Below the pieces are notes generated by a model. It saw only the letters and a list, made by a program, of their open reading frames with translations, ran no database searches and had not been told where the DNA came from. A DNA stretch of 64,000 bases from the NCBI GenBank assembly GCA_944393695.1, contig CALYAY010000005.1, positions 33,717 through 97,716 of the forward strand. Direction: 5' to 3'. Source of the DNA: an uncultured Alphaproteobacteria bacterium (lineage in GTDB: Bacteria; Pseudomonadota; Alphaproteobacteria; RF32; CAG-239). Below are positions 803 to 51,758 of the stretch, piece after piece. Every line of letters starts with the position of its first letter. Within the stretch, counting starts at the first letter, position 1. The translations under genes were made by a program, and so were the position numbers.

Positions 803-2788
803 TTAGAATTCGATGACAGGATGAACTGATGCTGTTATAGTGTTTTTATTGGAATATCGATCAGTGCTATAACTGTAGCATATTCCGTACTTGCATACAG
901 ATGAGGCACCTGCAGTCCAGACAAATGTTCCCGTTTTTTCAGTTGATGTCCATATAGTTTGTCTAATATAATTGGAATTTCCGGCCACTTTGCGGATGAC
1001 TGATTGGATAAGCTCTTCATTTTCTGGATATGCCCGGAATACACCAGCTGCCGGCAGGCACCAATCGCCAGATTTTGTTCCTTCTGTTTTATATTCGTGT
1101 GCAGCCCAGGCTGCCGGGTAATCATTTTTATTACCCATAGAAACAATTATATTTGTGTTTTCGCAACTTTGAAAATCTGTTGAGGCAGCTTCATAGCTAT
1201 CTTTATTGGGTATACTCAAATCAATTTGTTCTGTATTTGCTGAAGACCATGTATAACTTGTTTTAAAACTTTCTACAGATATAGCCTGGGCGCAGTTTCC
1301 GTCATCGCTTTTATAAATGACGACGGCGATGGGGGTTTTACCAGAGACGACAGTGGAAGCACAGGTTCCGTCACTGTAAAGAATATCGCCGATATTGCAG
1401 TTTTTAGCATAACCGTTACACTTTCCCCATTCTGCTTTAGGTTCTTCTTTGCAAATGCCGTCTTTCCATTCATAACCGCTGGCACAATTACAGGATTTGT
1501 ATTTTCCGTCACAGGCTTCACCAGAGCCGCCGGCGTAACCGGTGCCGGTGCAGGTGTATTGGTAGTCGGCTGAGCATTGCTTTGTGCAGGTTTGAGAGCC
1601 TGAGTTCCAGTCGTAGCCGGACTGGCAGCCGGTTTTGCAATATTTACCGGAGCAGTCTTCATAGCGGCAGGTGAAGGGTGAGGGGCAGCTGGTGTAAGTG
1701 CATTCATAGGCGCACTGTTTGGTGCAGGTCTTGGTATTTTCATTCCAGTCGTAGCCGGGTTGGCAGCCGGTTTTATAATAAAGACCGGAACAATCCTCGT
1801 AGGAGCAGGTGAAGGGTGCGGGACAGTAGGTGAGGCTGCCGAGATTGGGGCAGGCTTTGCAGTTATCGTATTTTATCTGATTTCCTGATTGGCAGGATTT
1901 TGCACCGATTTCGGGCCCCATGCTGCCGCAATCCATATATCCGTTGCAAGGATTGGGTTTGATTTTATATTTTGTTTGTCCGTTGCAATCCACACAGGCT
2001 TCGCCGTCTTGAACGTAACCGTCGGGAATGGTGGTGTTGTCATAACCGGCGCAGGTGTTGCAGCAGGTGCCGTAAGTATTGTCGTACGAGCAACGGTCGG
2101 AGCTTAATTGCTGGCCGGTGCCGCAGGTATTTGTATAGTTTGGATTTAATTCTTTGCAGGCGCGTTCGGTATCTTTTTCACAGGAGGCATATTTCCCGTC
2201 ACAGTCTTCACCGACGCCATAGTAGGGGACTTCACAGGTGACGTAATTGCTTGGACAGGAAGAAACACATTTTTCGAAATAATTGCTGTCGTAGGGGCAG
2301 GTGTTGACGGGTTCCTGACCTTCGGGACATGAGGTTTGGGTATAGCCTTCCTGACAGCAGCGCTCGGCATTGTCGAGGTCATAATCATCACCTCCGGGAG
2401 GTACGCCGCCGTCATCCTCATCGGCATTATTCCCCGCAAACTCATTGCCGGAACAGTTGGTTGTGTCGGTCACGAAACAGGCGGCTGCGAGTTTTATTTT
2501 TTCACCCTTTTCTTCCCTCCCTAAAGAGTTAGGGAGGGTAAGGGAGGGTTTGAAACCCTCTCTGTCTCTCCCTGAGTTTTCAGGGAGAGTAAGTTCGGCA
2601 AAATCTTCAGGTGAAGACAAATGTCCGGCCGTGAGGTGTGAAGTGTGTGTGGAAACGTGTGATTTAACTCCGGCGGGAATAAAAGACGGGGAAGTGTCAA
2701 AATGATTAAAGTCAGCGCAACACCAATCAGCTCCGGCAATAAGGGACATGCAGGAAGCCGACAACATGAGAATAGTCTTATTCATCAT
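803..2788 (-). CDS. Cysteine-rich secreted protein with C-terminal DUF1566 (Lcl-C-like) domain
   Basis: N-terminal signal peptide. More than 80 Cys in repeated CxxGYDW / CSG modules. C-terminus (GKTPIAVVIY...YPAAWAAHEYKTEGTKSGDWCLPAAG) matches the DUF1566 pattern and is paralogous to 19299..20123. N-terminal half is paralogous to 20414..21508. Confidence 0.75.
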   Translation of the reverse strand: MMNKTILMLSASCMSLIAGADWCCADFNHFDTSPSFIPAGVKSHVSTHTSHLTAGHLSSPEDFAELTLPENSGRDREGFKPSLTLPNSLGREEKGEKIKLAAACFVTDTTNCSGNEFAGNNADEDDGGVPPGGDDYDLDNAERCCQEGYTQTSCPEGQEPVNTCPYDSNYFEKCVSSCPSNYVTCEVPYYGVGEDCDGKYASCEKDTERACKELNPNYTNTCGTGQQLSSDRCSYDNTYGTCCNTCAGYDNTTIPDGYVQDGEACVDCNGQTKYKIKPNPCNGYMDCGSMGPEIGAKSCQSGNQIKYDNCKACPNLGSLTYCPAPFTCSYEDCSGLYYKTGCQPGYDWNENTKTCTKQCAYECTYTSCPSPFTCRYEDCSGKYCKTGCQSGYDWNSGSQTCTKQCSADYQYTCTGTGYAGGSGEACDGKYKSCNCASGYEWKDGICKEEPKAEWGKCNGYAKNCNIGDILYSDGTCASTVVSGKTPIAVVIYKSDDGNCAQAISVESFKTSYTWSSANTEQIDLSIPNKDSYEAASTDFQSCENTNIIVSMGNKNDYPAAWAAHEYKTEGTKSGDWCLPAAGVFRAYPENEELIQSVIRKVAGNSNYIRQTIWTSTEKTGTFVWTAGASSVCKYGICYSYSTDRYSNKNTITASVHPVIEF

Positions 2789-2915
2789 AATAACACCTCT
2801 TAGTCTTAAATTACATTTGTCTTCACGAATCTAATGATAACAGAAATTGAAATGGTTGTAAATAGATAATTTGGCTATATGACGGGAAATCTGACTAGAA
2901 GAAAATAAGGCTGAC
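2789..2915 (-). promoter_or_regulatory. Conserved 5' leader/promoter region shared by the two Cys-rich paralogs (tgtcttcacgaatctaatgataacag ... atgacgggaaatc)
   Basis: Near-identical blocks at 2790..2910 and 21510..21610, immediately upstream of paralogous start codons. RBS aagaggtg precedes the ATG. Confidence 0.35.
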
Positions 2916-3232
2916 ATTTGACCCCTCCGGCTCCCCTTTCTAAAGGGGAGAGGTCAATAAGGAAGATCCCTTGACGTTCAGGCTGGCGCTGAACGAGGGA
3001 TGACAGTTTTTTGAAAATGAAACCCTCCCCAACCTTCTGGCTCCGTAAGTGTTGCCAAGGGGCAACACTAAGTCGTTGCGGTCACTCGGTTTGTAACGCT
3101 CATTTCGCGTTGCTGCCGCTAGCTTATGAGCTAACAAACTCTCGCCTGTCGTTGAAAATATCTCCACCGGAGATATTTTCTGCCTCCGGCCCTGAGTTTT
3201 CAGGGAGGGGGAAGACAAGAAGGAGGATGGCT
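2916..3232. repeat. Composite REP/RPE-like palindromic mosaic repeat cluster (copy A)
   Basis: Modules include gacccctccggctcccctttctaaaggggagagg, cttgacgttcaggctggcgctgaacgagggatgac, gaaaccctcccc and a 120-bp unit. Full composite recurs at 21812..22200. Partial copies at 20140..20410 (inverted) and 43730..44150. Confidence 0.8.
3066..3187. repeat. About 120-bp structured repeat unit, copy 1 (candidate sRNA/structured element)
   Basis: 117/120 identical to 22039..22160. Contains hairpins tgttgccaaggggcaaca, gtaacgctcatttcgcgttgc and tatctccaccggagata. Confidence 0.5.
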
Positions 3233-3262
3233 AAAAAATAAAGCCCCGTTTCCGGGGCTTGG
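3233..3262 (-). terminator. Rho-independent terminator downstream of pyk
   Basis: Hairpin agccccgtttccggggct followed by a T-run on the minus strand. Confidence 0.6.
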
Positions 3263-3267
3263 AAGTT

Positions 3268-4692
3268 TTAAGGAATATACACCGTATGGAGCATATTGGT
3301 ACGGCCCTTTTTGCCCAAGGGGAAACCGGCGGTAATGATAATATGGTCTCCGGATTTGGCAAAACCATTTTCAACCGCAATTTTTACGGCCGTTTCTTCA
3401 ATTTTATCAAAACTGGCAAAAGTCTGTTTGTTTACAAAACTCTTGGCTCCCCAAACAATACCCAGACGGCGGGCAACCTCAATATTCGGCGTAATGGCCA
3501 AAATCGGCAGATTGGGGCGTTCTCGGGCGGTTAAAAACGTGGTCAGACCGGATGAAGTATAAGTTATTATCGCGGCTACGTTTTTCAACACACCGGCAAT
3601 ATCGCTGGCGGCAAAGGTAATCGAATCGGATTCACCGACACAACAGGGGTGCAGACGCTGGCTGTCCATTAATTTGTAAAACAGAGGATCAGCTTCAACT
3701 TCGGTGATAATATCGCGCATCATGCGCACGGCTTCCACCGGATATTTACCGGCGGCCGACTCTGCAGAAAGCATAACCGTATCGGCTCCGTCATAAACAG
3801 CGGTGGCCACATCAGAGGCTTCCGCACGGGTGGGGCCGGGATTATTAATCATGGATTCAAGCATTTGCGTGGCAATAATGACCGGACGGCCGAGTTTGCG
3901 GCAGGCGGCTACGATTTTTTTCTGCAATACGGGAACCTGCTGTATCGGACATTCGACTCCCAAGTCGCCCCGGGCCACCATGATACCGTCGGAGAGTTTG
4001 ATAATCTCATCAAGCTCGGCAATGGCACTCGGTTTTTCCAGTTTGGAAATAATCCAGGCCTTGTCGCCTATCAGTTCGCGCGCATAGCGGACATCGTCGG
4101 CTTTTTGCACAAAAGATAAAGAAATCCAGTCAAAACCCAGTTTTAAGGCAAATTTCAAATCATTCTTGTCTTTTTCGGTAATGGCGGAAATCGGCAAAGT
4201 GATATTCGGCAGATTAACGCCTTTATGACTGGACAGAGGGCCGCCCACTTCAACCTTGGTCCAGATATGCGAATCATCATGTTTTTCGACCCGGAGACGG
4301 ATGTTTCCGTCATTTAACAGCAAAAGGTCTTTGGGTTTAACGGCCTTGAATATCTCGGGATGAGGCAGCGGAACCCGTTTTTCGTCACCGGGGTCTTTGT
4401 CCATATCCAACAAAAACTTCTGCCCTTCTTTGAGCATAACCTCACCGTCTTTAAATTCACCAACCCGCAGCTTCGGCCCCTGCATATCGGCAATCAGCGT
4501 AATATGCAGCCCTTTTTCTTTGGCCAGTTTGCGAACAATTTCATAACGTTCTTTATGTTCTTCGTGGGTTCCGTGGCTGAAATTAAAGCGGAAAGCATCG
4601 GCGCCGGAATCAATCAGCCGTTCAATCACTTCGCGTGAGGCTGAAGACGGTCCGATGGTTGCCAGAATGTGAGTTTTTGTTTTATGCGGCAT
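3268..4692 (-). CDS. pyk: Pyruvate kinase
   Basis: N-terminal sequence MPHKTKTHILATIGPSS...RFNFSHG and motifs throughout. ATG at 4692 with aaaggg RBS; ORF-track start at 4707 is TTG. Confidence 0.9.
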   Translation of the reverse strand: MPHKTKTHILATIGPSSASREVIERLIDSGADAFRFNFSHGTHEEHKERYEIVRKLAKEKGLHITLIADMQGPKLRVGEFKDGEVMLKEGQKFLLDMDKDPGDEKRVPLPHPEIFKAVKPKDLLLLNDGNIRLRVEKHDDSHIWTKVEVGGPLSSHKGVNLPNITLPISAITEKDKNDLKFALKLGFDWISLSFVQKADDVRYARELIGDKAWIISKLEKPSAIAELDEIIKLSDGIMVARGDLGVECPIQQVPVLQKKIVAACRKLGRPVIIATQMLESMINNPGPTRAEASDVATAVYDGADTVMLSAESAAGKYPVEAVRMMRDIITEVEADPLFYKLMDSQRLHPCCVGESDSITFAASDIAGVLKNVAAIITYTSSGLTTFLTARERPNLPILAITPNIEVARRLGIVWGAKSFVNKQTFASFDKIEETAVKIAVENGFAKSGDHIIITAGFPLGKKGRTNMLHTVYIP

Positions 4693-4856
4693 AATAAACC
4701 CTTTCAATAATTAATCTCTGCCGATATAGTAATCAAAAATAATTTAACAATATATTACATTATCCGATTAATCCCCTAAATTTATTGCTTGTAAAATAAA
4801 TTTGATTTTGTTAGATTGAGGGGCAATGTTAACTTGTTTTTTAAGGAGCTTTAACT

Positions 4857-5099
4857 ATGAGTGACGTTGGGGGAATCGACAGTTCAAGACTGGCATCTCT
4901 GATTGAAAGAATTGAACATCTGGAAGAGGAAAAAGCGGCTATTGCCTCGGATATACGTGATATTTTTGCCGAAGCAAAGTCTGCCGGATTTGACGTTAAA
5001 ATCATGCGGGCGGTTTTGAAACTGCGCAAGATGAACGCTGCCGACCGCGATGAGCAGGAAATTTTGCTGGAGACTTATCGCAAGGCTTTGGATTTGTAG
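4857..5099 (+). CDS. gapR: GapR-like DUF2312 nucleoid-associated protein
   Basis: 80 aa. LIERIEHLEEEK...DIFAEAKSAGFDVKIMRAVLKLRK closely matches Caulobacter GapR/DUF2312. RBS aaggag upstream. Confidence 0.75.
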   Translation: MSDVGGIDSSRLASLIERIEHLEEEKAAIASDIRDIFAEAKSAGFDVKIMRAVLKLRKMNAADRDEQEILLETYRKALDL

Positions 5100-5125
5100 T
5101 CTTTAATATCAAAAAAAAAAATCAA

Positions 5126-5149
5126 CCTCCGCCGGGCGGAGGTTTTTTG
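5126..5149 (+). terminator. Rho-independent terminator after gapR
   Basis: Hairpin cctccgcc-g-ggcggagg followed by tttttt. Confidence 0.7.
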
Positions 5150-5154
5150 TTATA

Positions 5155-5646
5155 TTATAATCCCCAGCGGACATAACGGGGAAGTTTCATATAATTACAG
5201 CCTTCGGCGCCGAATTCAGGACAATCGGGCGAAACATAACTCATTTCAATATCCAACAGGTGATAAACCCCATAGCTATGACGAACGGCCCGCAGATAAA
5301 GCGGCATCATGGAAGTTTGGACGGCAATGTCACTGTAGGTGCTCTCATCGGTTACGGGGTTGGGACTTTTCAAAAACGGCAGACAGAGCCAAATGTCCTT
5401 TTCTCCGGCAGCCGGCGTGCAAGACAATGCATGGTTCAGATGATCGGAAAAAATGGTATTGTATTTATGCTGAGAACCGGCAGCAGCTTTAATTTTTCCA
5501 ACGGTCAAATCACCGTCAAAAACATTTCCCGGGCGGGGGTTGGTGTTTTGCCAGGTGCCATACATATTGCCGCTGCAGAAAAACAAAATCAACATCCCCA
5601 CACCTAATACGCCGGCAAGTGCATAAACTATATATTTGTTTTTCAT
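5155..5646 (-). CDS. Hypothetical secreted/membrane-anchored protein
   Basis: 163-aa ORF. N-terminal hydrophobic segment MKNKYIVYALAGVLGVGMLILFF. No recognisable domain. Confidence 0.5.
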   Translation of the reverse strand: MKNKYIVYALAGVLGVGMLILFFCSGNMYGTWQNTNPRPGNVFDGDLTVGKIKAAAGSQHKYNTIFSDHLNHALSCTPAAGEKDIWLCLPFLKSPNPVTDESTYSDIAVQTSMMPLYLRAVRHSYGVYHLLDIEMSYVSPDCPEFGAEGCNYMKLPRYVRWGL

Positions 5647-5658
5647 AGCCCTCTCCTT

Positions 5659-6177
5659 TTATAATTTTAATACCATTCCGACTCCGGCTGCAATCACGAT
5701 ATAAAGAATCGGACTGAAACGGAATTTGCGAATAATCACAAAAAACAATACAAACAACGCCGCATTTAACCAAGTGGTAAGCGAAAGTTTTCCGACTTCG
5801 GCACCGGCCATCAGAATCAGAGCAAGTACCGCCGGACGAATCCCGGACAAAACGCTGCGAACCCGCTCATCTTTACTATAACGGGACAAAAAACGGGCGA
5901 TTACAATAATGATCACGACCGAAGGAAACGTCAGTCCGGTAACGGCGCAAAAAGCCCCGGCAATTCCGGCGGTTTTGTAGCCAGCATAAACAGCCATGTT
6001 TACGCCCAAAGGCCCGGGCGTGGACTCGGAAACGGCAATCATGTTGCTCAATTCTTCGGTTGTAAACCAGGGGTAAGTTTCCGCCAGATCAAATAAAAAA
6101 GGAATGGTGACCAAACCGCCGCCGATGGCAAAAAGGCCGACCTTAAAAAATTCATAAAACAACAGCCAATAGATCAT
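5659..6177 (-). CDS. chrA: Chromate transporter family protein (short-chain CHR, second half of pair)
   Basis: CHR-family motifs FKVGLFAIGGG...TPGP, multiple TM segments. 4-nt overlap with the upstream partner. Confidence 0.75.
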   Translation of the reverse strand: MIYWLLFYEFFKVGLFAIGGGLVTIPFLFDLAETYPWFTTEELSNMIAVSESTPGPLGVNMAVYAGYKTAGIAGAFCAVTGLTFPSVVIIIVIARFLSRYSKDERVRSVLSGIRPAVLALILMAGAEVGKLSLTTWLNAALFVLFFVIIRKFRFSPILYIVIAAGVGMVLKL

Positions 6178-9601: not shown

Positions 9602-9845
9602 AGTGGTAGTCCCGAACAGAGTTGAACTGTTTACTCAGCTACGTCAAAGCTACGTGATAACCGTTTCACTACGGGACTAGCGAAAACTTTTATTTATGTA
9701 GCGTATATTTTGGTTAAATGCAAGTCTTTTTTTCATATCCGGATAAATTTAGAGAATAATTTCCGTCTCTCCTTGTTTTTATTTATTGATATTTTATTTA
9801 TTTTTGTATAATATAGAAGAAAACAACCATGAAGGAGGATGAATA

Positions 9846-19298: not shown

Positions 19299-20123
19299 TT
19301 AGAATTCAAGGACGGGCCGGACCTCGTAGCGGTTAGGCTTATTGATGGTGTCGCTGCCGTACAACCCGTAGTCGTTGCTTAAATTCGAGTACCACGCGCT
19401 GCCGCCACGGTTCTCGGAAGACGACCAGAGGGAGGAACTTCTTCCTAACTGATCACCACCGGCCAATACAAACCCGGCATTAATCGCCGACATATTGTTT
19501 TTAATACTCGTCATAATACCGGCTGCCGGCAGACACCAATCCCCGGCATTAGTACCCTCTGTCTTATACTCATGTGCCGCCCAGGCAGCCGGATAAGTAC
19601 TCTTATTGCCAGCATTAGTAATAAGAATTGTATTGCTGCAACTCTTAACATCAGTTGCCGCCATCTCTGCACTACTCCAGTTGGTCAAAGTTGTAATATC
19701 CGTGCCGTATCCACTCCACGCATAATCTCCTATTTTTTTCAATGCCATGGCCTGACCACCGCCTGTTCCGTCAACATAAACCACCACACCAATCGGGGTT
19801 TTACCACTGATAACCTTACCATAAGAACAACTTATATCAGAATAAAAAATTGAACCTATGGCGCAATCTTTGGTATTACCACCTCCAATACCACCTTCTT
19901 CAATCACTTTTTTGATTTCCGTGATTTCGGTGGTGATTTCATTAATTTTATCTGCTAAGGTGCAGTTCCAGGCATTGCCGAAGGGACACTTAATCCCGCC
20001 TTCGCAGGATGATGAGCTTTCATAGCCCAAACTAGAACAACTCGGCGTCGGGATACATGCGGCATAAACACTTCCCGCACTTATCACCATTACCCCCACA
20101 CTCGCTAATAATATTTTCTTCAT
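19299..20123 (-). CDS. Secreted DUF1566 (Lcl-C-like) domain protein, paralog of C-terminus of 803..2788
   Basis: Signal peptide MKKILLASVGVMVISAGSVYAA. GKTPIGVVVYVD...YPAAWAAHEYKTEGTNAGDWCLPAAG shared with 803..2788. Nucleotide-level similarity is also visible. Confidence 0.7.
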   Translation of the reverse strand: MKKILLASVGVMVISAGSVYAACIPTPSCSSLGYESSSSCEGGIKCPFGNAWNCTLADKINEITTEITEIKKVIEEGGIGGGNTKDCAIGSIFYSDISCSYGKVISGKTPIGVVVYVDGTGGGQAMALKKIGDYAWSGYGTDITTLTNWSSAEMAATDVKSCSNTILITNAGNKSTYPAAWAAHEYKTEGTNAGDWCLPAAGIMTSIKNNMSAINAGFVLAGGDQLGRSSSLWSSSENRGGSAWYSNLSNDYGLYGSDTINKPNRYEVRPVLEF

Positions 20124-20139
20124 AACCTTTCTCCTTATA

Positions 20140-20410
20140 TTAGTTGTTAATAATATTTACCGTTCCCCTTTTTACCTCGCCCTTGAGGGGAGAGGTCGGA
20201 GCGTAAGCTCCGGGTGAGGGTGACAAAATAAACTGTCATCCCTCGTTCAGCGTCAGTCTGAACGTCAAGGGATCTTCCTTGCTGCTCTCTCCCCTTTTAA
20301 AAGGGGAGCCGGAGGGGTCAAATAGCGCCGCTTTATTCATCAGACTTGCATTCGCCATTCCACCCTCACCCTAACCCTCTCCCCTCAAGGGCGAGGGAAT
20401 AAAGAGCAAT
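20140..20410. repeat. REP/RPE-like palindromic mosaic repeat cluster (inverted orientation)
   Basis: Contains the reverse complement of unit 1 (gtcatccctcgttcagcg...aaaaggggagccggaggggtc) plus gggtgagggtg / ccctctcccctcaagggcgaggg palindromes. Confidence 0.8.
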
Positions 20411-20413
20411 CCC

Positions 20414-21508
20414 CTATCCGCCGCAGAAGTCACAATAATCCGCACAATTCGTCGCACAACCGGTGGCATACCATAAGCCCGAGCATTCTTCATACTGGCA
20501 TATGGTGCAGCTCGGACAGGTGGTGTATTCTCCCAAGTTCGGGCAGGCCTTACAATTGTCATACATGGTGGTTGTTCCCGACAAACAAGTCGAGGCTCCG
20601 GCTTCTCCGCCCATGGAGCCGCAGTCCATATATCCATCACACGGGTTGGGTTTTATCTTGTAATGTTCCTGACCGTCACAACCAAGGCAGCTCTCACCAT
20701 CCTGGACATAGCCGTCGGGAATACTCGTATTGTCGTATCCGGCACAAGTGTTGCAACAGGTGCCGTATAAACTGTCATAAGAACATCTGTCATCGCTTAA
20801 TTGTTGGCCGGTGCCGCATTCATCGACATAACCGGGGTTCAATTCCTGACAGGCGCGCTCAGTGTCTTTTTCACAAGAGGCATATTTCCCGTCGCAGGCC
20901 TCTCCCACGCCGTAATACGGAACTTCACAAGTGACATAATTTGAGGGACAGGAAGAAACACATTTTTCAAAATAAGTGCTGTCATAGGGGCAGGTGTTGG
21001 AAGGTTCCTGACCTTCGGGACAGGAGGTTTGGGTATATCCTTCCTGGCGGCAGCGTTCAGCATTGTCCAAATCATAATCATCGCCGTCTCCGGGACCGCC
21101 GGGAGCCCCGTGTCCGTCATCATCGGCATTATTGCCGCTAAACTCATTTCCCGAACAGGCTGAGGTATCGGTTACAAAACAGGTGGCTGCGAGTTGGGGA
21201 AGAGGGGTGTTGTGAAACCCTCCCCAGCCCCTCCCTAAGTTTTTAGGGAGGGGATAGAATAGATAGTTCCCTAAGTCTTTAGGGAGGGAATAGGATAGAT
21301 AGTTCCCTGAGTTTTCAGGGAGAGGATAAAAGGCAGAAGACAACAACATTTCTTCCGGGTGAGAGGTGTGTGTATAAGGTGTGTGGACAAATGTAACCGC
21401 CCCCGGAGTGTTGAGAGATGTTAGATTATGAATTGAAGCCAAACTGCCGCCGGGCATAAGAAACAGCCCGGAAACCGACAGCATTAATGCTTTGGATAAT
21501 TTCATCAT
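20414..21508 (-). CDS. Cysteine-rich secreted protein, paralog of N-terminal half of 803..2788
   Basis: Signal peptide. Near-identical central block (CFVTDT..CSGNEFSGNNADDD...NAERC.QEGYTQTSCPEGQEP.NTCPYDS.YFEKCVSSCPSNYVTCEVPYYGVGE.CDGKYASCEKDTERAC.ELNP). Lacks the DUF1566 domain. Confidence 0.7.
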   Translation of the reverse strand: MMKLSKALMLSVSGLFLMPGGSLASIHNLTSLNTPGAVTFVHTPYTHTSHPEEMLLSSAFYPLPENSGNYLSYSLPKDLGNYLFYPLPKNLGRGWGGFHNTPLPQLAATCFVTDTSACSGNEFSGNNADDDGHGAPGGPGDGDDYDLDNAERCRQEGYTQTSCPEGQEPSNTCPYDSTYFEKCVSSCPSNYVTCEVPYYGVGEACDGKYASCEKDTERACQELNPGYVDECGTGQQLSDDRCSYDSLYGTCCNTCAGYDNTSIPDGYVQDGESCLGCDGQEHYKIKPNPCDGYMDCGSMGGEAGASTCLSGTTTMYDNCKACPNLGEYTTCPSCTICQYEECSGLWYATGCATNCADYCDFCGG

Positions 21509-21610
21509 AATATCACCTGTCTGTTGTTGTCTTCACGAATCTTATGATAACAGATATTTTACAAATAATCAATGTGTATTTTAAATATAATGACGGGAAA
21601 TCGGACGAGG
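21509..21610 (-). promoter_or_regulatory. Conserved 5' leader/promoter region of Cys-rich paralog (copy 2)
   Basis: tgtcttcacgaatcttatgataacag and atgacgggaaatcgg blocks shared with 2789..2915. Confidence 0.35.
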
Positions 21611-22330
21611 TTTTAAAACCCCCTCTAACTCCCCCTAAAATATTAGGGGGAGGATATAAGGATACTTGATTGTCACCCTCACCCGACACGTTGTGTCGAC
21701 CTCTCCCCTTAAGGGCGAGGTGAAGAAATGGATGACTTTTTTGCCTAGATCCTCGGGTTAAACCCGAGGGTGACAGGGAAAAGGGAGGCTGAGAAAAGAT
21801 AAGGCTGATATTTGACCCCTCCGGCTCCCCTTTCTAAAGGGGAGAGGGCAATAAGGAAGATCCCTTGACGTTCAGACTGGCGCTGAACGAGGGATGACAA
21901 TTTTTATTTGTTTGAATATGAAACCCTCCCCGACCCTCCCTAAGACTTTAGGGAGGGAGATATATGAGTAGAGATTTTAGAGGGATGACATTGCCATACC
22001 CCCTCCAACTTTCTGGCTCCTACTAAGCTCACTACGTTTGCTAAGTCGCTGCGGTCACTCAGTTTGTAACGCTCATTTCGCGTTGCTGCCGCTAGCTTAT
22101 GAGCTAACAAACTCTCGCCTGTCGTTGAAAATATCTCCACAGGAGATATTTTCTGCCTCCAGCCCTATAACTATAGGGGGAGGGTGGGTTTGGGGGCAAA
22201 GGCTTTAGGGGGGGAAAGTATAAGGAAAGTTTTTTTCACCCTCACCCTGACCCTCTCCCCTCAAGGGAGAGGGAAGAATACGGGGAGGTTTTTGGGAGGG
22301 GAATATGGGGTTTAGAAAGGGTGGTAAGGA
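21540..22330. repeat. Large REP/RPE-like palindromic mosaic repeat cluster (includes composite copy B)
   Basis: Stacked palindromes: ccccctaaaatattaggggg, cctcgggttaaacccgagg, tcaccctcaccc...ctctcccc.taagggcgagg, tccctccctaagactttagggaggga. Also contains unit 1 (21816..21903) and the 120-bp unit. Confidence 0.8.
22039..22160. repeat. About 120-bp structured repeat unit, copy 2
   Basis: 3 substitutions relative to 3066..3187. Flanking 30 bp (cttctggctcc...) is also shared. Confidence 0.5.
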
Positions 22331-22475
22331 AAGAGGATGTGGTTGGGGGTGGAATTGTAGCTATTTGTGAAAAAATGGTTGTGAAAAGCTGTGAAGGTTA
22401 CAAAAAAAATTCATTTTTGCCAAAAATAAAGGGGCTTCAAAACGAAGCGCCCTTTTTACACTTTCTAAAAATTTC

Positions 22476-43726: not shown

Positions 43727-43729
43727 GGG

Positions 43730-44150
43730 GGATTTTAAAACCCCCTCTAACTCCCCCTAATATTTTAGGGGGAGAGATATTAGGCTGGATTTGTTACCTG
43801 GGTCCTCGGGTTAAACCCGAGGATGACAGAGGGAGAAGGATGACAGTGTCTCTTTCCCACCTCTCCCTTGAGGGGAGAGGTCGCAGAACGGAGTGACGCG
43901 GGTGAGGGTGAGAGGGGTAAGGCAGGTATTTGCTCTCCCCGGCCCTCTCATCTATGAAAGGGTGACAAATTTGAAGATCCCCTGACGTTCAGGCTGGCGC
44001 TGAACGAGGGATGACAGTTTTTATTTGGATATGAAACCCTCCTACTCCCCCTAAATTTTTAGGGGGAGGGTGATTTGGAGGACTAAGACTTTAGGGGAGA
44101 GATATAGGGGAAACAAAAAAATCCCCTCGAGGGGAGGGGAAATTTTGTTA
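43730..44150. repeat. REP/RPE-like palindromic mosaic repeat cluster
   Basis: Shares ccccctaatattttaggggg, cctcgggttaaacccgagg, cctctcccttgaggggagagg, gggtgagggtgag, and the 3' half of unit 1 (gaagatcccctgacgttcaggctggcgctgaacgagggatgacag) with the other clusters. Confidence 0.8.
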
Positions 44151-51537: not shown

Positions 51538-51758
51538 GGCATAGAGAAGAGCTGTCCGGTGCGTAGTTCCCGCAAGTCTTCCGAGCCAACATTATCTTTA
51601 AGGGAACTGTCACTGAGCAAATCGTGGTTTGTTTATATGGTGCCCACCTATTTGACAGCGGTTCGTGTGGAATGCACTAGATACGGCTGTGACGGCCCTT
51701 CTCGCCAGTTTTTAATTTTAACATGACGAAAATCCCCGGTTCGGGATTTTCGTGTTTT
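51538..51758 (+). ncRNA. ssrS: Candidate 6S RNA (SsrS) with intrinsic terminator
   Basis: Immediately downstream of zapA (conserved zapA-ssrS synteny). 5' gagaagagc pairs with 3' gcccttctc (closing stem). Terminator hairpin aaaatccc-cggttc-gggatttt plus T-run at 51729..51758. Confidence 0.5.

Follow-up and report, generated by a model that had tools for sequence, protein, structure and literature searches.

Two paralogous loci of a stalk-and-head protein family in uncultured gut Alphaproteobacteria, with two long-standing gene formats and young palindromic repeats

We analysed a 64-kb stretch of DNA, referred to here as the window. Our reading, to which we assign a probability of roughly 0.75, is as follows. 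The window contains two paralogous loci of a multi-copy, so far uncharacterised, Sec-exported protein family of uncultured gut Alphaproteobacteria. Two formats of this family, a single chain with stalk and head and a pair of genes encoding these parts separately, are both long-standing. Conversely, the palindromic repeats found at both loci are young. The proposed function is glycan binding.

Three open reading frames, here named A661, B364 and B274, were confirmed (Table 1). The initial annotation held that the two short genes match the two ends of the long one, and alignments agree. Residues 1-342 of A661 align with B364 (63% identity, E 7e-132) and residues 462-661 align with B274 aa 85-274 (42% identity, E 4e-37). 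The similarity is not confined to low-complexity cysteine spacing; the stalk cores (A661 aa 101-342 compared with B364) are 80% identical and truly homologous. The described arrangement, one fused locus and one two-gene pair divided by a palindromic repeat cluster, was also confirmed. The locus encoding B364 and B274 is rplM-proximal.

Table 1. Features of the two loci and of their repeats in the window.
Feature	Position (nt)	Strand	Description
A661	803..2788	-	ORF; fused stalk and head gene, 661 aa, 54 Cys
A661 signal peptide	2788-2723	-	
A661 linker	2722-2489	-	disordered, repeat-derived
Hairpin elements within A661 CDS	2505..2600	-	three, perfect; in-frame translation includes TLPENSGRDREGFKPSLTLPNSLGRE; DNA fold z -6.0
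A661 stalk core	2488-1763	-	Cys-rich
A661 mid region	1762-1409	-	tandemly duplicated Cys modules
A661 head	1408-806	-	Lcl_C-like
A661 upstream region	2789..3267		terminator-like hairpin after pyk, T5, T3+T2 unit, promoter-proximal block
Promoter-proximal block, A661	2781-2898		conserved
T3+T2 unit upstream of A661	2897-3037		
T5 upstream of A661	3068-3193		about 126 bp
B274	19299..20123	-	head gene, 274 aa
B274 signal peptide	20123-20061	-	own signal-peptide-like N-terminus, MKKILLASVGVMVISAGSVYA followed by A
B274 Cys module	20060-19962	-	single, small
B274 neck	19961-19872	-	Ile-rich helix or coiled coil
B274 head	19871-19302	-	Lcl_C-like
B364-B274 intergenic repeat cluster	20124..20413		290 bp; two inverted T1 copies enclosing T2 and T3
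B364	20414..21508	-	stalk-only gene, 364 aa, 31 Cys
B364 signal peptide and linker	down to about 21191	-	linker repeat-derived
Hairpin elements within B364 CDS	21220..21330	-	three; translated LPENSGN, LPKDLGN and LPKNLGRGWGG; DNA fold z -4.9
B364 core	21190-20417	-	Cys-rich; ends in conserved tail ATNCADYCDFCGG and stop
B364 upstream region	21509..22475		repeat elements in same order as upstream of A661, plus T1 copies
Promoter-proximal block, B364	21501-21609		conserved
T4+T3+T2 upstream of B364	21792-21938		89% identical to counterpart upstream of A661
T5 upstream of B364	22041-22166		97% identical to T5 upstream of A661
Third intergenic repeat cluster	43727-44147		unrelated to the others

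The family design would be a conserved, disulfide-rich stalk bearing an exchangeable head that evolves fast. The stalk, we propose, is a string of small beta-hairpin Cys modules spanning about 250 aa, and tandem module duplication has lengthened it in some members. A661 contains an internal tandem duplication (1574-1694 and 1712-1832; 77% identity). The single-chain format would be that of A661. In the paired format, a stalk-only protein (B364) would come first; the second gene would encode the head protein (B274), which begins with a separate signal peptide and continues through a single Cys module and a short, Ile-rich helical neck. The AF2 model of A661 has pLDDT below 50 at aa 1-136, mostly 72-90 in the stalk blocks (aa 282-310 are below 50) and 77-96 in most head blocks. 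For B274, pLDDT is mostly above 90 in the head and a helix is modelled at aa 55-75. This helix is Ile-rich and heptad-like, which hints at oligomerisation, and the coiled-coil neck may oligomerise the head. Foldseek also returned weak matches to NELL2 EGF, Pfs25 and TNFR, none of them significant (E 4e-3 to 1). A weak Pfam match was to RANK_CRD_2 (E 0.022). Eukaryotic EGF/TNFR-type Cys-rich arrays are likewise rod-like strings of small disulfide-bonded modules, and a helix before a lectin-like head, as in B274, recalls the collectin neck. Both likenesses are structural analogies; there is no evidence of homology.

The initial annotation labelled the head DUF1566/Lcl. None of the three window proteins supports this label directly. 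No match to PF07603 (Lcl_C) was obtained at E<1, the gathering threshold being 34.9 bits, and searches of Pfam, NCBIfam and PHROGs gave no usable match to these proteins. What remained was a weak match of B274 aa 171-271 to TIGR02145 (E 0.043; 14.5 bits against a cut-off of 41.65). Similarly, the family profile found nothing among PDB sequences. The label nevertheless holds as a statement of remote homology. Weak Lcl_C matches at E<1 were found for 26 of 62 family members (best 3.7e-5). Furthermore, one relative passes the PF07603 gathering score outright (50.2 against 34.9 bits, E 3.8e-13). This protein, L008:8895-10259, is the syntenic counterpart of B274 in a distant MAG, where its gene follows one for a stalk-only protein; its alignment with B274 spans aa 1-274 (37% identity, E 9e-49). 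Hence, the family connects to Lcl_C transitively. Structure is consistent with this. The B274 model matched 4EPS (E 6.4e-6) and 8Q4E_A (E 8.7e-5, TM 0.61 on target) with probability 1.0, and the same two entries were the top matches of the A661 model, again with probability 1.0 (4EPS E 1.1e-6). Both models adopt the C-type-lectin-like fold of the Lcl C-terminal domain. We conclude that the head is a remote Lcl_C/DUF1566 homologue, and its fold would be C-type-lectin-like throughout the family.

Lcl of Legionella pneumophila (8Q4E; PF07603, formerly DUF1566) is a surface-associated trimer secreted by the T2SS, and its DUF1566-containing C-terminal domain binds sulphated glycosaminoglycans (PMC11162425). 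Like the proteins described here, it is exported and has a stalk and a C-terminal globular head. In B274, the helical neck before the head can be likened to the stalk through which trimeric Lcl oligomerises (PMC11162425). The differences are equally clear. Sequence identity is about 20%. Collagen-like repeats make up the Lcl stalk; in the family this part consists of disulfide-rich beta-hairpin modules or of a short helix. Four Cys are nearly invariant in the family head, but the Lcl C-terminal domain is without disulfides (PMC11162425). Even among species of Legionella, the lysines through which Lcl binds GAGs are not conserved (PMC11162425). The family is hosted by gut commensal MAGs, all of them uncultured Alphaproteobacteria; Legionella-like pathogens are not among them. 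The best structural match of both models, BACOVA_04982 of Bacteroides ovatus (4EPS), shares the gut setting but has an unrelated N-terminal part. FISUMP proteins (Fibrobacter succinogenes major paralogous domain, TIGR02145) are DUF1566-related and form large paralogous exported families, though their phylum and N-terminal architecture differ and the B274 score falls far under the cut-off.

A homologue search identified at least 312 stalk-bearing proteins (298 representatives at 50% clustering). Among 139 sequences in hand, 80 have stalk, mid region and head, 35 have stalk and mid region with another C-terminus, 17 are stalk only and seven are head-type. When Pfam was applied to the alternative C-termini, the single match was sub-threshold (Pectate_lyase_5, E 1.6e-4). 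The scan of genome contigs for homologues returned distant species only, at up to 64% identity; the species of the window itself was absent. The initial annotation described a modular family with a secreted Cys-rich stalk and an Lcl_C/DUF1566-like head. The ORFs, alignments and fold matches bear this out. Exchange of modules, also proposed there, is evident in the mosaic identity of A661 and its closest homologues. Against the P0002 and P0005 genes, nucleotide identity starts at 96-100% (codons 1-90), drops to 71-92% across the stalk core and is lowest, at 46-67%, in the head. The family would diversify by segmental recombination among its members, in which heads can be replaced at the stalk/head junction. 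The closest homologues of A661-type genes lie in differing flanks. Hence, positional orthology is unusable. The gene pair also occupies differing genomic flanks in different MAGs, so orthology or paralogy of single copies is uncertain.

The stalk is under strong purifying selection. Between the B364 core and that of its L017 orthologue, dN is 0.058 and dS is 0.81. In the same relative, dN/dS is about 0.07 for the stalk and about 0.26 for the head. The pair is conserved in the close relatives L017, L019 and L020. It also occurs in the distant MAGs L003 and L008, where the ORFs were read and the spacers are 1-15 nt; a stalk-match/head-match layout of the same kind is present in L004, L005, L007 and L010. 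B364 and B274 are probably co-transcribed, since no promoter- or terminator-like site was found in the intergenic region between them and the gap is so short in distant relatives. A strong Shine-Dalgarno sequence, AAGGAG, lies upstream of B274. From the adjacency of the two genes, we infer that their products may interact physically.

The initial annotation envisaged a recent event, in which insertion of the palindromic cluster split a fused stalk and head gene, after which a signal peptide was added to the downstream half. The cluster indeed sits exactly between B364 and B274. In addition, the relatives L020 and L021 have lost the stalk core in a deletion bounded by two repeat copies, so the same repeat families demonstrably border a deletion inside such a locus. 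The age of the genes does not fit. Synonymous sites are saturated between the two loci, in the stalk cores (pS = 0.78) and in the heads (pS = 0.81, dN 0.59), which share just 42% identity. A661 aa 343-460, its middle 118 aa, are found in neither B364 nor B274. Hence, B364 and B274 together do not account for the fused gene. B274 aa 1-84 and the B364 tail, ending DYCDFCGG, have no counterpart in A661. Stalk-only orthologues keep this conserved tail and end at an identical position in at least nine sequence clusters; the stop codon is TAG in the window and TGA in L017. The head gene does carry its own signal peptide, as annotated, but the idea that it gained this peptide is not supported: at least 1,331 stand-alone B274-type proteins have the same signal peptide, Cys module and helix. 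This N-terminal layout, and the length of mostly 259-283 aa, were read from the best 120 of them. Finally, the pairs of L003 and L008 have spacers of 1-15 nt, no T1-T5 element occurs in these or the other distant pair loci, and the split state is thus not limited to lineages with a repeat at the junction. A recent split is highly improbable, and the claim that repeats caused it fails.

The opposite direction of change fares better. Here the pair is ancestral and A661-type chains are fused operon partners, in which the head lost its signal peptide, Cys module and helix and the mid region arose by tandem duplication of the last stalk module. The mid region is such a duplicate. Stand-alone heads, with at least 1,331 matches, far outnumber the proteins that bear a stalk, with at least 312. 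In a neighbour-joining tree, stalk-only orthologues form one monophyletic clade that nests among stalks with long C-termini and is not derived from the clade of A661. That tree, however, has no meaningful root, and distant MAGs such as L001 have fused forms too. Hence, both formats are old. We regard an ancient fusion as possible but tentative. It refines, and does not contradict, the preferred reading of two long-standing formats, in which neither would be a recent derivative of the other.

The repeats have a different history. Five element types (T1-T5) were recognised, with two to five copies each in three window clusters. They were seen by BLAST-short, regex and folding; a strict repeat search gave one spacer hairpin only. 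Rfam identified just 6S RNA and one tRNA in the window, and the repeats match no RNA family. The initial annotation gave the cluster between B364 and B274 as 270 bp. A palindromic cluster is present there, but its length is 290 bp. Its predicted folding energy (-135.9 kcal/mol, z -9.0) is far better than that of shuffled sequences. The elements are REP/MITE-like, being short palindromic units with dispersed copies, intergenic clustering and in-frame copies in coding sequence. In-frame copies lie in the A661 and B364 linkers, and T5 is in frame in the L017 orthologue. One of the three hairpins inside B364 also scores as terminator-like. T1-T5 are present in close loci, but none occurs in any of the 15 distant ones. 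The two window loci share upstream repeats of 89-97% identity although their genes are synonymously saturated. Hence, the repeats are much younger than the gene architecture. They would represent a young, lineage-specific invasion of the two loci, with landing sites in the spacer of the pair, in upstream regions and, in frame, within the disordered linker that follows the signal peptide. The cluster between B364 and B274 entered the spacer of the pair later; the homologous pairs read in distant MAGs have spacers of 1-15 nt. The contribution of the repeats would be variation in linker length and occasional deletions.

RPEs and enterobacterial REP/BIME clusters are similar in being short, dispersed palindromic repeats clustered intergenically, but no sequence relationship to the window repeats was found. 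RPEs invade coding and non-coding regions alike (PMC1166351), and the window repeats likewise lie in frame inside protein-coding genes. Unlike RPEs, they reside in a free-living gut alphaproteobacterial lineage, and their in-gene copies in the window are confined to the disordered linker of two paralogues. A further, rather speculative proposal is that the pair is a two-component surface adhesin with parts exchanged by recombination. Here, the repeats would tune the adhesin through in-frame linker length and through deletion of the stalk core between direct copies, giving 'stalk+head' or 'head only' forms as in L020 and L021. We consider this improbable as a whole. If true, repeats would drive the variation of a family of surface proteins in gut Alphaproteobacteria.

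The exported stalk would present the lectin-like head, which could bind a glycan or another ligand of gut surfaces in an adhesin-like manner, as Legionella Lcl does. By analogy, the proteins are probably glycan-binding adhesins, and a role in host interaction is plausible. No secretion genes adjoin either locus. Alternatively, the Lcl-like fold could be merely a scaffold, and the proteins could act extracellularly as secreted toxins or effectors, phage-receptor decoys or structural envelope components. Function is here wholly inferred, with no family assigned by Pfam, PHROG or NCBIfam; the GAG-binding lysines vary even within Legionella (PMC11162425) and some stalks bear other, unannotated C-terminal domains. 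Even so, the traits seen here, namely a stalk with a lectin-like head, a multi-copy mosaic family with fast-evolving heads and life in the gut, are typical of surface proteins that bind ligands. Of the two nearest structures, one is an adhesin domain (Lcl) and the other was deposited as a fimbrial protein of Bacteroides. One alternative C-terminus is itself weakly like a 'pectate lyase-like adhesive domain' (the Pectate_lyase_5 match, below cut-off). A non-adhesin role is therefore unlikely. A separate question is whether a diversity-generating retroelement (DGR) targets the heads and makes them hypervariable, their low identity resulting from mutagenic retrohoming. Among the variable proteins of DGRs in human microbiomes, DUF1566 was the domain annotated most often, and a target of this kind was modelled on 4EPS (PMC4159848), the best fold match here. 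The gut setting is shared, and our heads also diverge much faster than the stalk or the remainder of the protein. The candidate was rejected after a reverse transcriptase motif scan and a search for adenine-biased TR/VR pairs, covering the 64-kb window and locus flanks, were negative. The sole YxDD match in the window belongs to a Sel1-repeat protein. Neither the window nor 23 related loci contain a template-repeat copy of head DNA or an adenine-biased repeat pair. Moreover, head divergence is domain-wide with saturated pS, and not limited to a C-terminal variable region. We give this explanation almost no weight; variation in the family is by recombination and ordinary divergence, not adenine-targeted mutagenesis.

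Our analysis corrects an attractive but wrong account of a recent gene split mediated by repeats. What the repeats actually do is different: they are translated inside a disordered linker and are able to delete the core of a gene, an RPE-like phenomenon outside Rickettsia. The work also gives a large and so far unnamed family, which has no precomputed Pfam annotation, a place in structural and evolutionary terms. Clustered at 90% identity, its head-type proteins number more than 1,300; for the stalk, clustering at 50% identity leaves about 300 representatives. The stalk is conserved and the Lcl-like heads are swappable; together with the many copies per genome and the mosaic recombination, this makes the family resemble a variable repertoire of surface lectins. 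Its members are concrete candidates for the attachment of gut Alphaproteobacteria to mucus, host cells and other microbes.

The initial annotation described three reading frames, and each is present on the minus strand where it was placed (see table). A661 fuses a Cys-rich stalk to a C-terminal Lcl_C/DUF1566-like head. B364 is a stalk-only gene and B274, downstream of it, encodes a separate head. B364 aligned with A661 residues 1–342 at 63% identity (E 7e-132), rising to 80% in the stalk core (A661 residues 101–342). Hence, the likeness is real homology that goes beyond Cys spacing. B274 residues 85–274 aligned with A661 residues 462–661 (42% identity, E 4e-37). Judged by eye, all three proteins resemble Sec-type signal peptides at their N-termini, which are basic and lead into at least 12 hydrophobic residues and an AxA-like site. 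One fused locus and one two-gene locus, as first observed, are therefore confirmed. Just past the signal peptide is a short motif, THTSH...LSS, in A661 (residues 46–59) and B364 (residues 46–58). Distant MAGs (loci L003 and L008) keep it as LHTHL. It may serve in sorting or processing, or as a metal site.

Features of the two loci and their repeats, with segments of the comparison between A661 and P0002, its closest homolog
Feature	Position	Strand	Details
A661	803..2788	minus	661 aa, 54 Cys
B364	20414..21508	minus	364 aa, 31 Cys
B274	19299..20123	minus	274 aa, 9 Cys
Post-signal-peptide motif, A661	~2653-2612		
Post-signal-peptide motif, B364	~21373-21335		
Tandem 46-aa Cys module, A661	1574-1694 / 1712-1832		77% nt identity
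Three perfect hairpin elements in A661 CDS	2505-2600	minus	fold z -6.0
Three perfect hairpin elements in B364 CDS	21220-21330	minus	fold z -4.9
Upstream repeat pair	3068-3193 / 22041-22166		97% identity
Upstream repeat pair	2897-3037 / 21792-21938		89% identity
Promoter-proximal block	window 2781-2898, 21501-21609; L017 2904-2980; L020 3700-3754		
A661 vs P0002	first 90 codons		96-100% nt identity, pS ~0.03
A661 vs P0002	stalk core		71-92% nt identity, pS 0.48
A661 vs P0002	end of core + mid (codons ~301-450)		90-99% nt identity, pS 0.30 (mid)
A661 vs P0002	head		46-67% nt identity except one conserved block, pS 0.66

Homologs are exclusively unnamed metagenomic proteins. The 15 loci found in species-representative genomes are all in uncultured Alphaproteobacteria MAGs; BRZ_ bins, UMGS63 ('uncultured Azospirillum sp.'), HGM16780 and one 'uncultured proteobacterium' bin. 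At least seven copies occur in one bin, several at contig ends. Searched exhaustively with HMMER, 1.84 billion representatives yielded 298 stalk relatives at E ≤ 1e-3 (200 at E ≤ 1e-10), which makes the stalk family modest in size. No Pfam family was found for the stalk, and in a structure search with the A661 model the stalk drew only EGF/TNFR-like fold matches, none significant. In this model, residues 1–136 (signal peptide, linker and an acidic Gly-rich stretch) are disordered. Residues 140–460 form strings of short beta-hairpins leading to the head, with block-mean pLDDT mostly 72–90 (below 50 for residues 282–310). The mid region (residues 343–460) holds a tandemly duplicated Cys module that lengthens the A661 stalk. 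About one in four of the examined stalk proteins (P0013, P0022, P0023, P0043 and others) has a different, unannotated C-terminal region in place of the Lcl-like head. One is weakly like Pfam Pectate_lyase_5, a 'putative pectate lyase-like adhesive domain' (E 1.6e-4, below cut-off). The same stalk may thus carry alternative heads.

The DUF1566/Lcl label is right as remote homology, but the window proteins themselves lack a PF07603 match. Pfam searches with A661, B364 and B274 found no match to PF07603 (Lcl_C, formerly DUF1566) at E < 1. The sole related signal among window proteins was a weak match of B274 to TIGR02145 FISUMP (E 0.043). We assign remote homology because Lcl_C was matched at E < 1 by 26 of 62 aligned family members (best 3.7e-5), a gene of the distant locus L008 passes Pfam, and the protein models match known structures. 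The L008 gene (8895-10259), which encodes two heads, follows a stalk-only gene and aligns to full-length B274 (E 9e-49). It exceeds the PF07603 gathering score (50.2 versus 34.9 bits, E 3.8e-13). In the AlphaFold2 model of B274, head pLDDT is mostly above 90. The model matched 4EPS (E 6.4e-6), which was deposited as a fimbrial protein of Bacteroides ovatus, and the C-terminal domain of Legionella Lcl, 8Q4E_A (E 8.7e-5, probability 1.0, TM 0.61 on target). The same structures were the top two matches of the A661 model. The Lcl domain is C-type-lectin-like, trimeric, GAG-binding and without disulfides (PMC11162425). In contrast, the head of this family has four nearly invariant Cys.

According to the initial annotation, recent domain shuffling, apparently mediated by the repeats, separated the two halves, and the DUF1566 gene gained its own signal peptide. 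The central claim of this evolutionary reading is wrong. A recent, repeat-mediated split is contradicted by saturated synonymous sites, non-additive genes, stand-alone heads and repeat-free distant pairs. Between the two window loci, synonymous sites are saturated in both the stalk core (pS 0.78, dN 0.17) and the head (pS 0.81, dN 0.59). B364 and B274 do not sum to A661. In alignments, A661 residues 343–460 are missing from both; A661 in turn lacks a counterpart of B274 residues 1–84 (signal peptide, Cys module and helix) and of the B364 tail ATNCADYCDFCGG*. Stand-alone B274-type proteins number at least 1,331. The best 120 are mostly 259–283 residues long, and nearly all cover 100% of B274 at 63–97% identity. 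Stalk-only orthologs of at least nine clusters share the same end residue, with TAG as the stop codon in the window and TGA in locus L017. They form one clade, separate from that of A661, in a tree of stalk cores.

The same gene pair occurs in close relatives (L017, L019 and L020), with repeat-bearing spacers of 189–389 bp. It is also found in distant MAGs (L003 and L008), with spacers of 1–15 nt, a Shine-Dalgarno sequence and a head gene with its own signal peptide. In L004, L005, L007 and L010, the same pair of stalk and head matches lies ~30 nt apart. Repeat types T1–T5, palindromic REP/MITE-like elements defined here, are present in close loci and absent from all 15 distant loci. The upstream repeats of the window loci are collinear and 89–97% identical, while the adjacent coding DNA is saturated at synonymous sites. 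Hence, the repeats are young and the genes old. These data show that both formats, single chain and gene pair, are old.

Comparison of A661 with the P0002 gene (L022 2163-4118) produced a mosaic identity profile that breaks at about residues 451–460. P0005 gave a different mosaic. The comparison also covers L023 4001-5986. Such profiles indicate segmental recombination, with head replacement at about residues 451–460. Across homologs, stalk cores are 44–90% identical to A661 and heads 24–57%. Against L017 orthologs, dN/dS is ~0.07 for the stalk and ~0.26 for the head. Domain shuffling, as initially proposed, holds insofar as modules are exchanged by recombination between members, but not as a recent split made by repeats. 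Among the annotated target domains of DGRs in human microbiomes, DUF1566 was the most frequent, and 4EPS served as the model for one such target (PMC4159848). We rejected DGR diversification of the heads after searching the 64-kb window and the locus flanks. No RT motif was found in the window, where the sole YxDD ORF encodes a Sel1-repeat protein. Neither a template copy of head DNA nor an adenine-biased repeat pair was found in the window or 23 loci.

The B364–B274 spacer (20124..20413) is indeed a palindromic cluster, but of 290 bp rather than the 270 bp first claimed. Folded as RNA, it reaches -135.9 kcal/mol, whereas shuffles reach -90 (z -9.0). The spacer showed neither promoter- nor terminator-like sites, which is compatible with possible co-transcription. 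The upstream repeats, in the same order and 89–97% identical, suggest gene conversion or a composite element that spread recently. The same families (T1, T3 and related) form a third cluster (43727-44147) between two convergent, unrelated genes, one a small HTH-like ORF and the other a 216-aa ORF rich in lysine. Thus, intergenic clustering is a general habit of these repeats. A promoter-proximal/5'-UTR block (...ctgttatca[t/a]aagattcgtgaagacaa...) is kept ahead of stalk-bearing genes across paralogs and relatives, and may be a promoter or regulatory site that they share. Rfam matched nothing in the window other than 6S/SsrS RNA (51546-51702, plus strand, 69.2 bits) and one tRNA (9607-9678, minus strand).

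Repeats also occur inside genes. The hairpins of A661 and B364 are read in frame, as LPENSG, LPKDLGN or LPKNLGRGWGG, in the disordered linker past the signal peptide. When orthologs of the stalk-only gene are compared, only this linker is hypervariable, and it differs by whole elements. In P0090 (L017 3230-3390), a ~126-bp T5 lies in frame within the linker, adding ~55 residues; T5 is intergenic in the window. Such behaviour recalls Rickettsia palindromic elements, described as invaders of coding and non-coding regions (PMC1166351), here outside Rickettsia. L020 contains an intact pair (3754-5810) whose linker and spacer each hold a T4. A second copy, on the minus strand (9445-8148), runs from the promoter through the signal peptide and linker up to T4 and there passes directly into the spacer tail and head gene. 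The whole Cys-rich core is gone exactly between the two direct T4 positions, leaving a 103-aa signal-peptide and linker ORF ahead of the head gene. An identical junction in L021 (4420-3202), from a different, independent sample, argues against an assembly artefact. Repeats can also delete the stalk core between direct copies.

The architecture shown by our data starts with export signals and a disordered linker built from repeats, followed by a conserved stalk rich in disulfides and a fast-evolving, exchanged Lcl-like head. The stalk would hold the head away from the cell. By analogy with Lcl, the head may bind a glycan or other surface ligand in an adhesin-like role. B274 has an Ile-rich helix with hydrophobic 3–4 spacing, read by eye, which might oligomerise the head, much as in trimeric Lcl, where the stalk has this role. 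B364 and B274 may work together. We conclude that these genes represent an uncharacterised stalk-and-lectin-head family of gut Alphaproteobacteria, with mosaic members and with loci that young palindromic repeats have invaded and at times remodelled.
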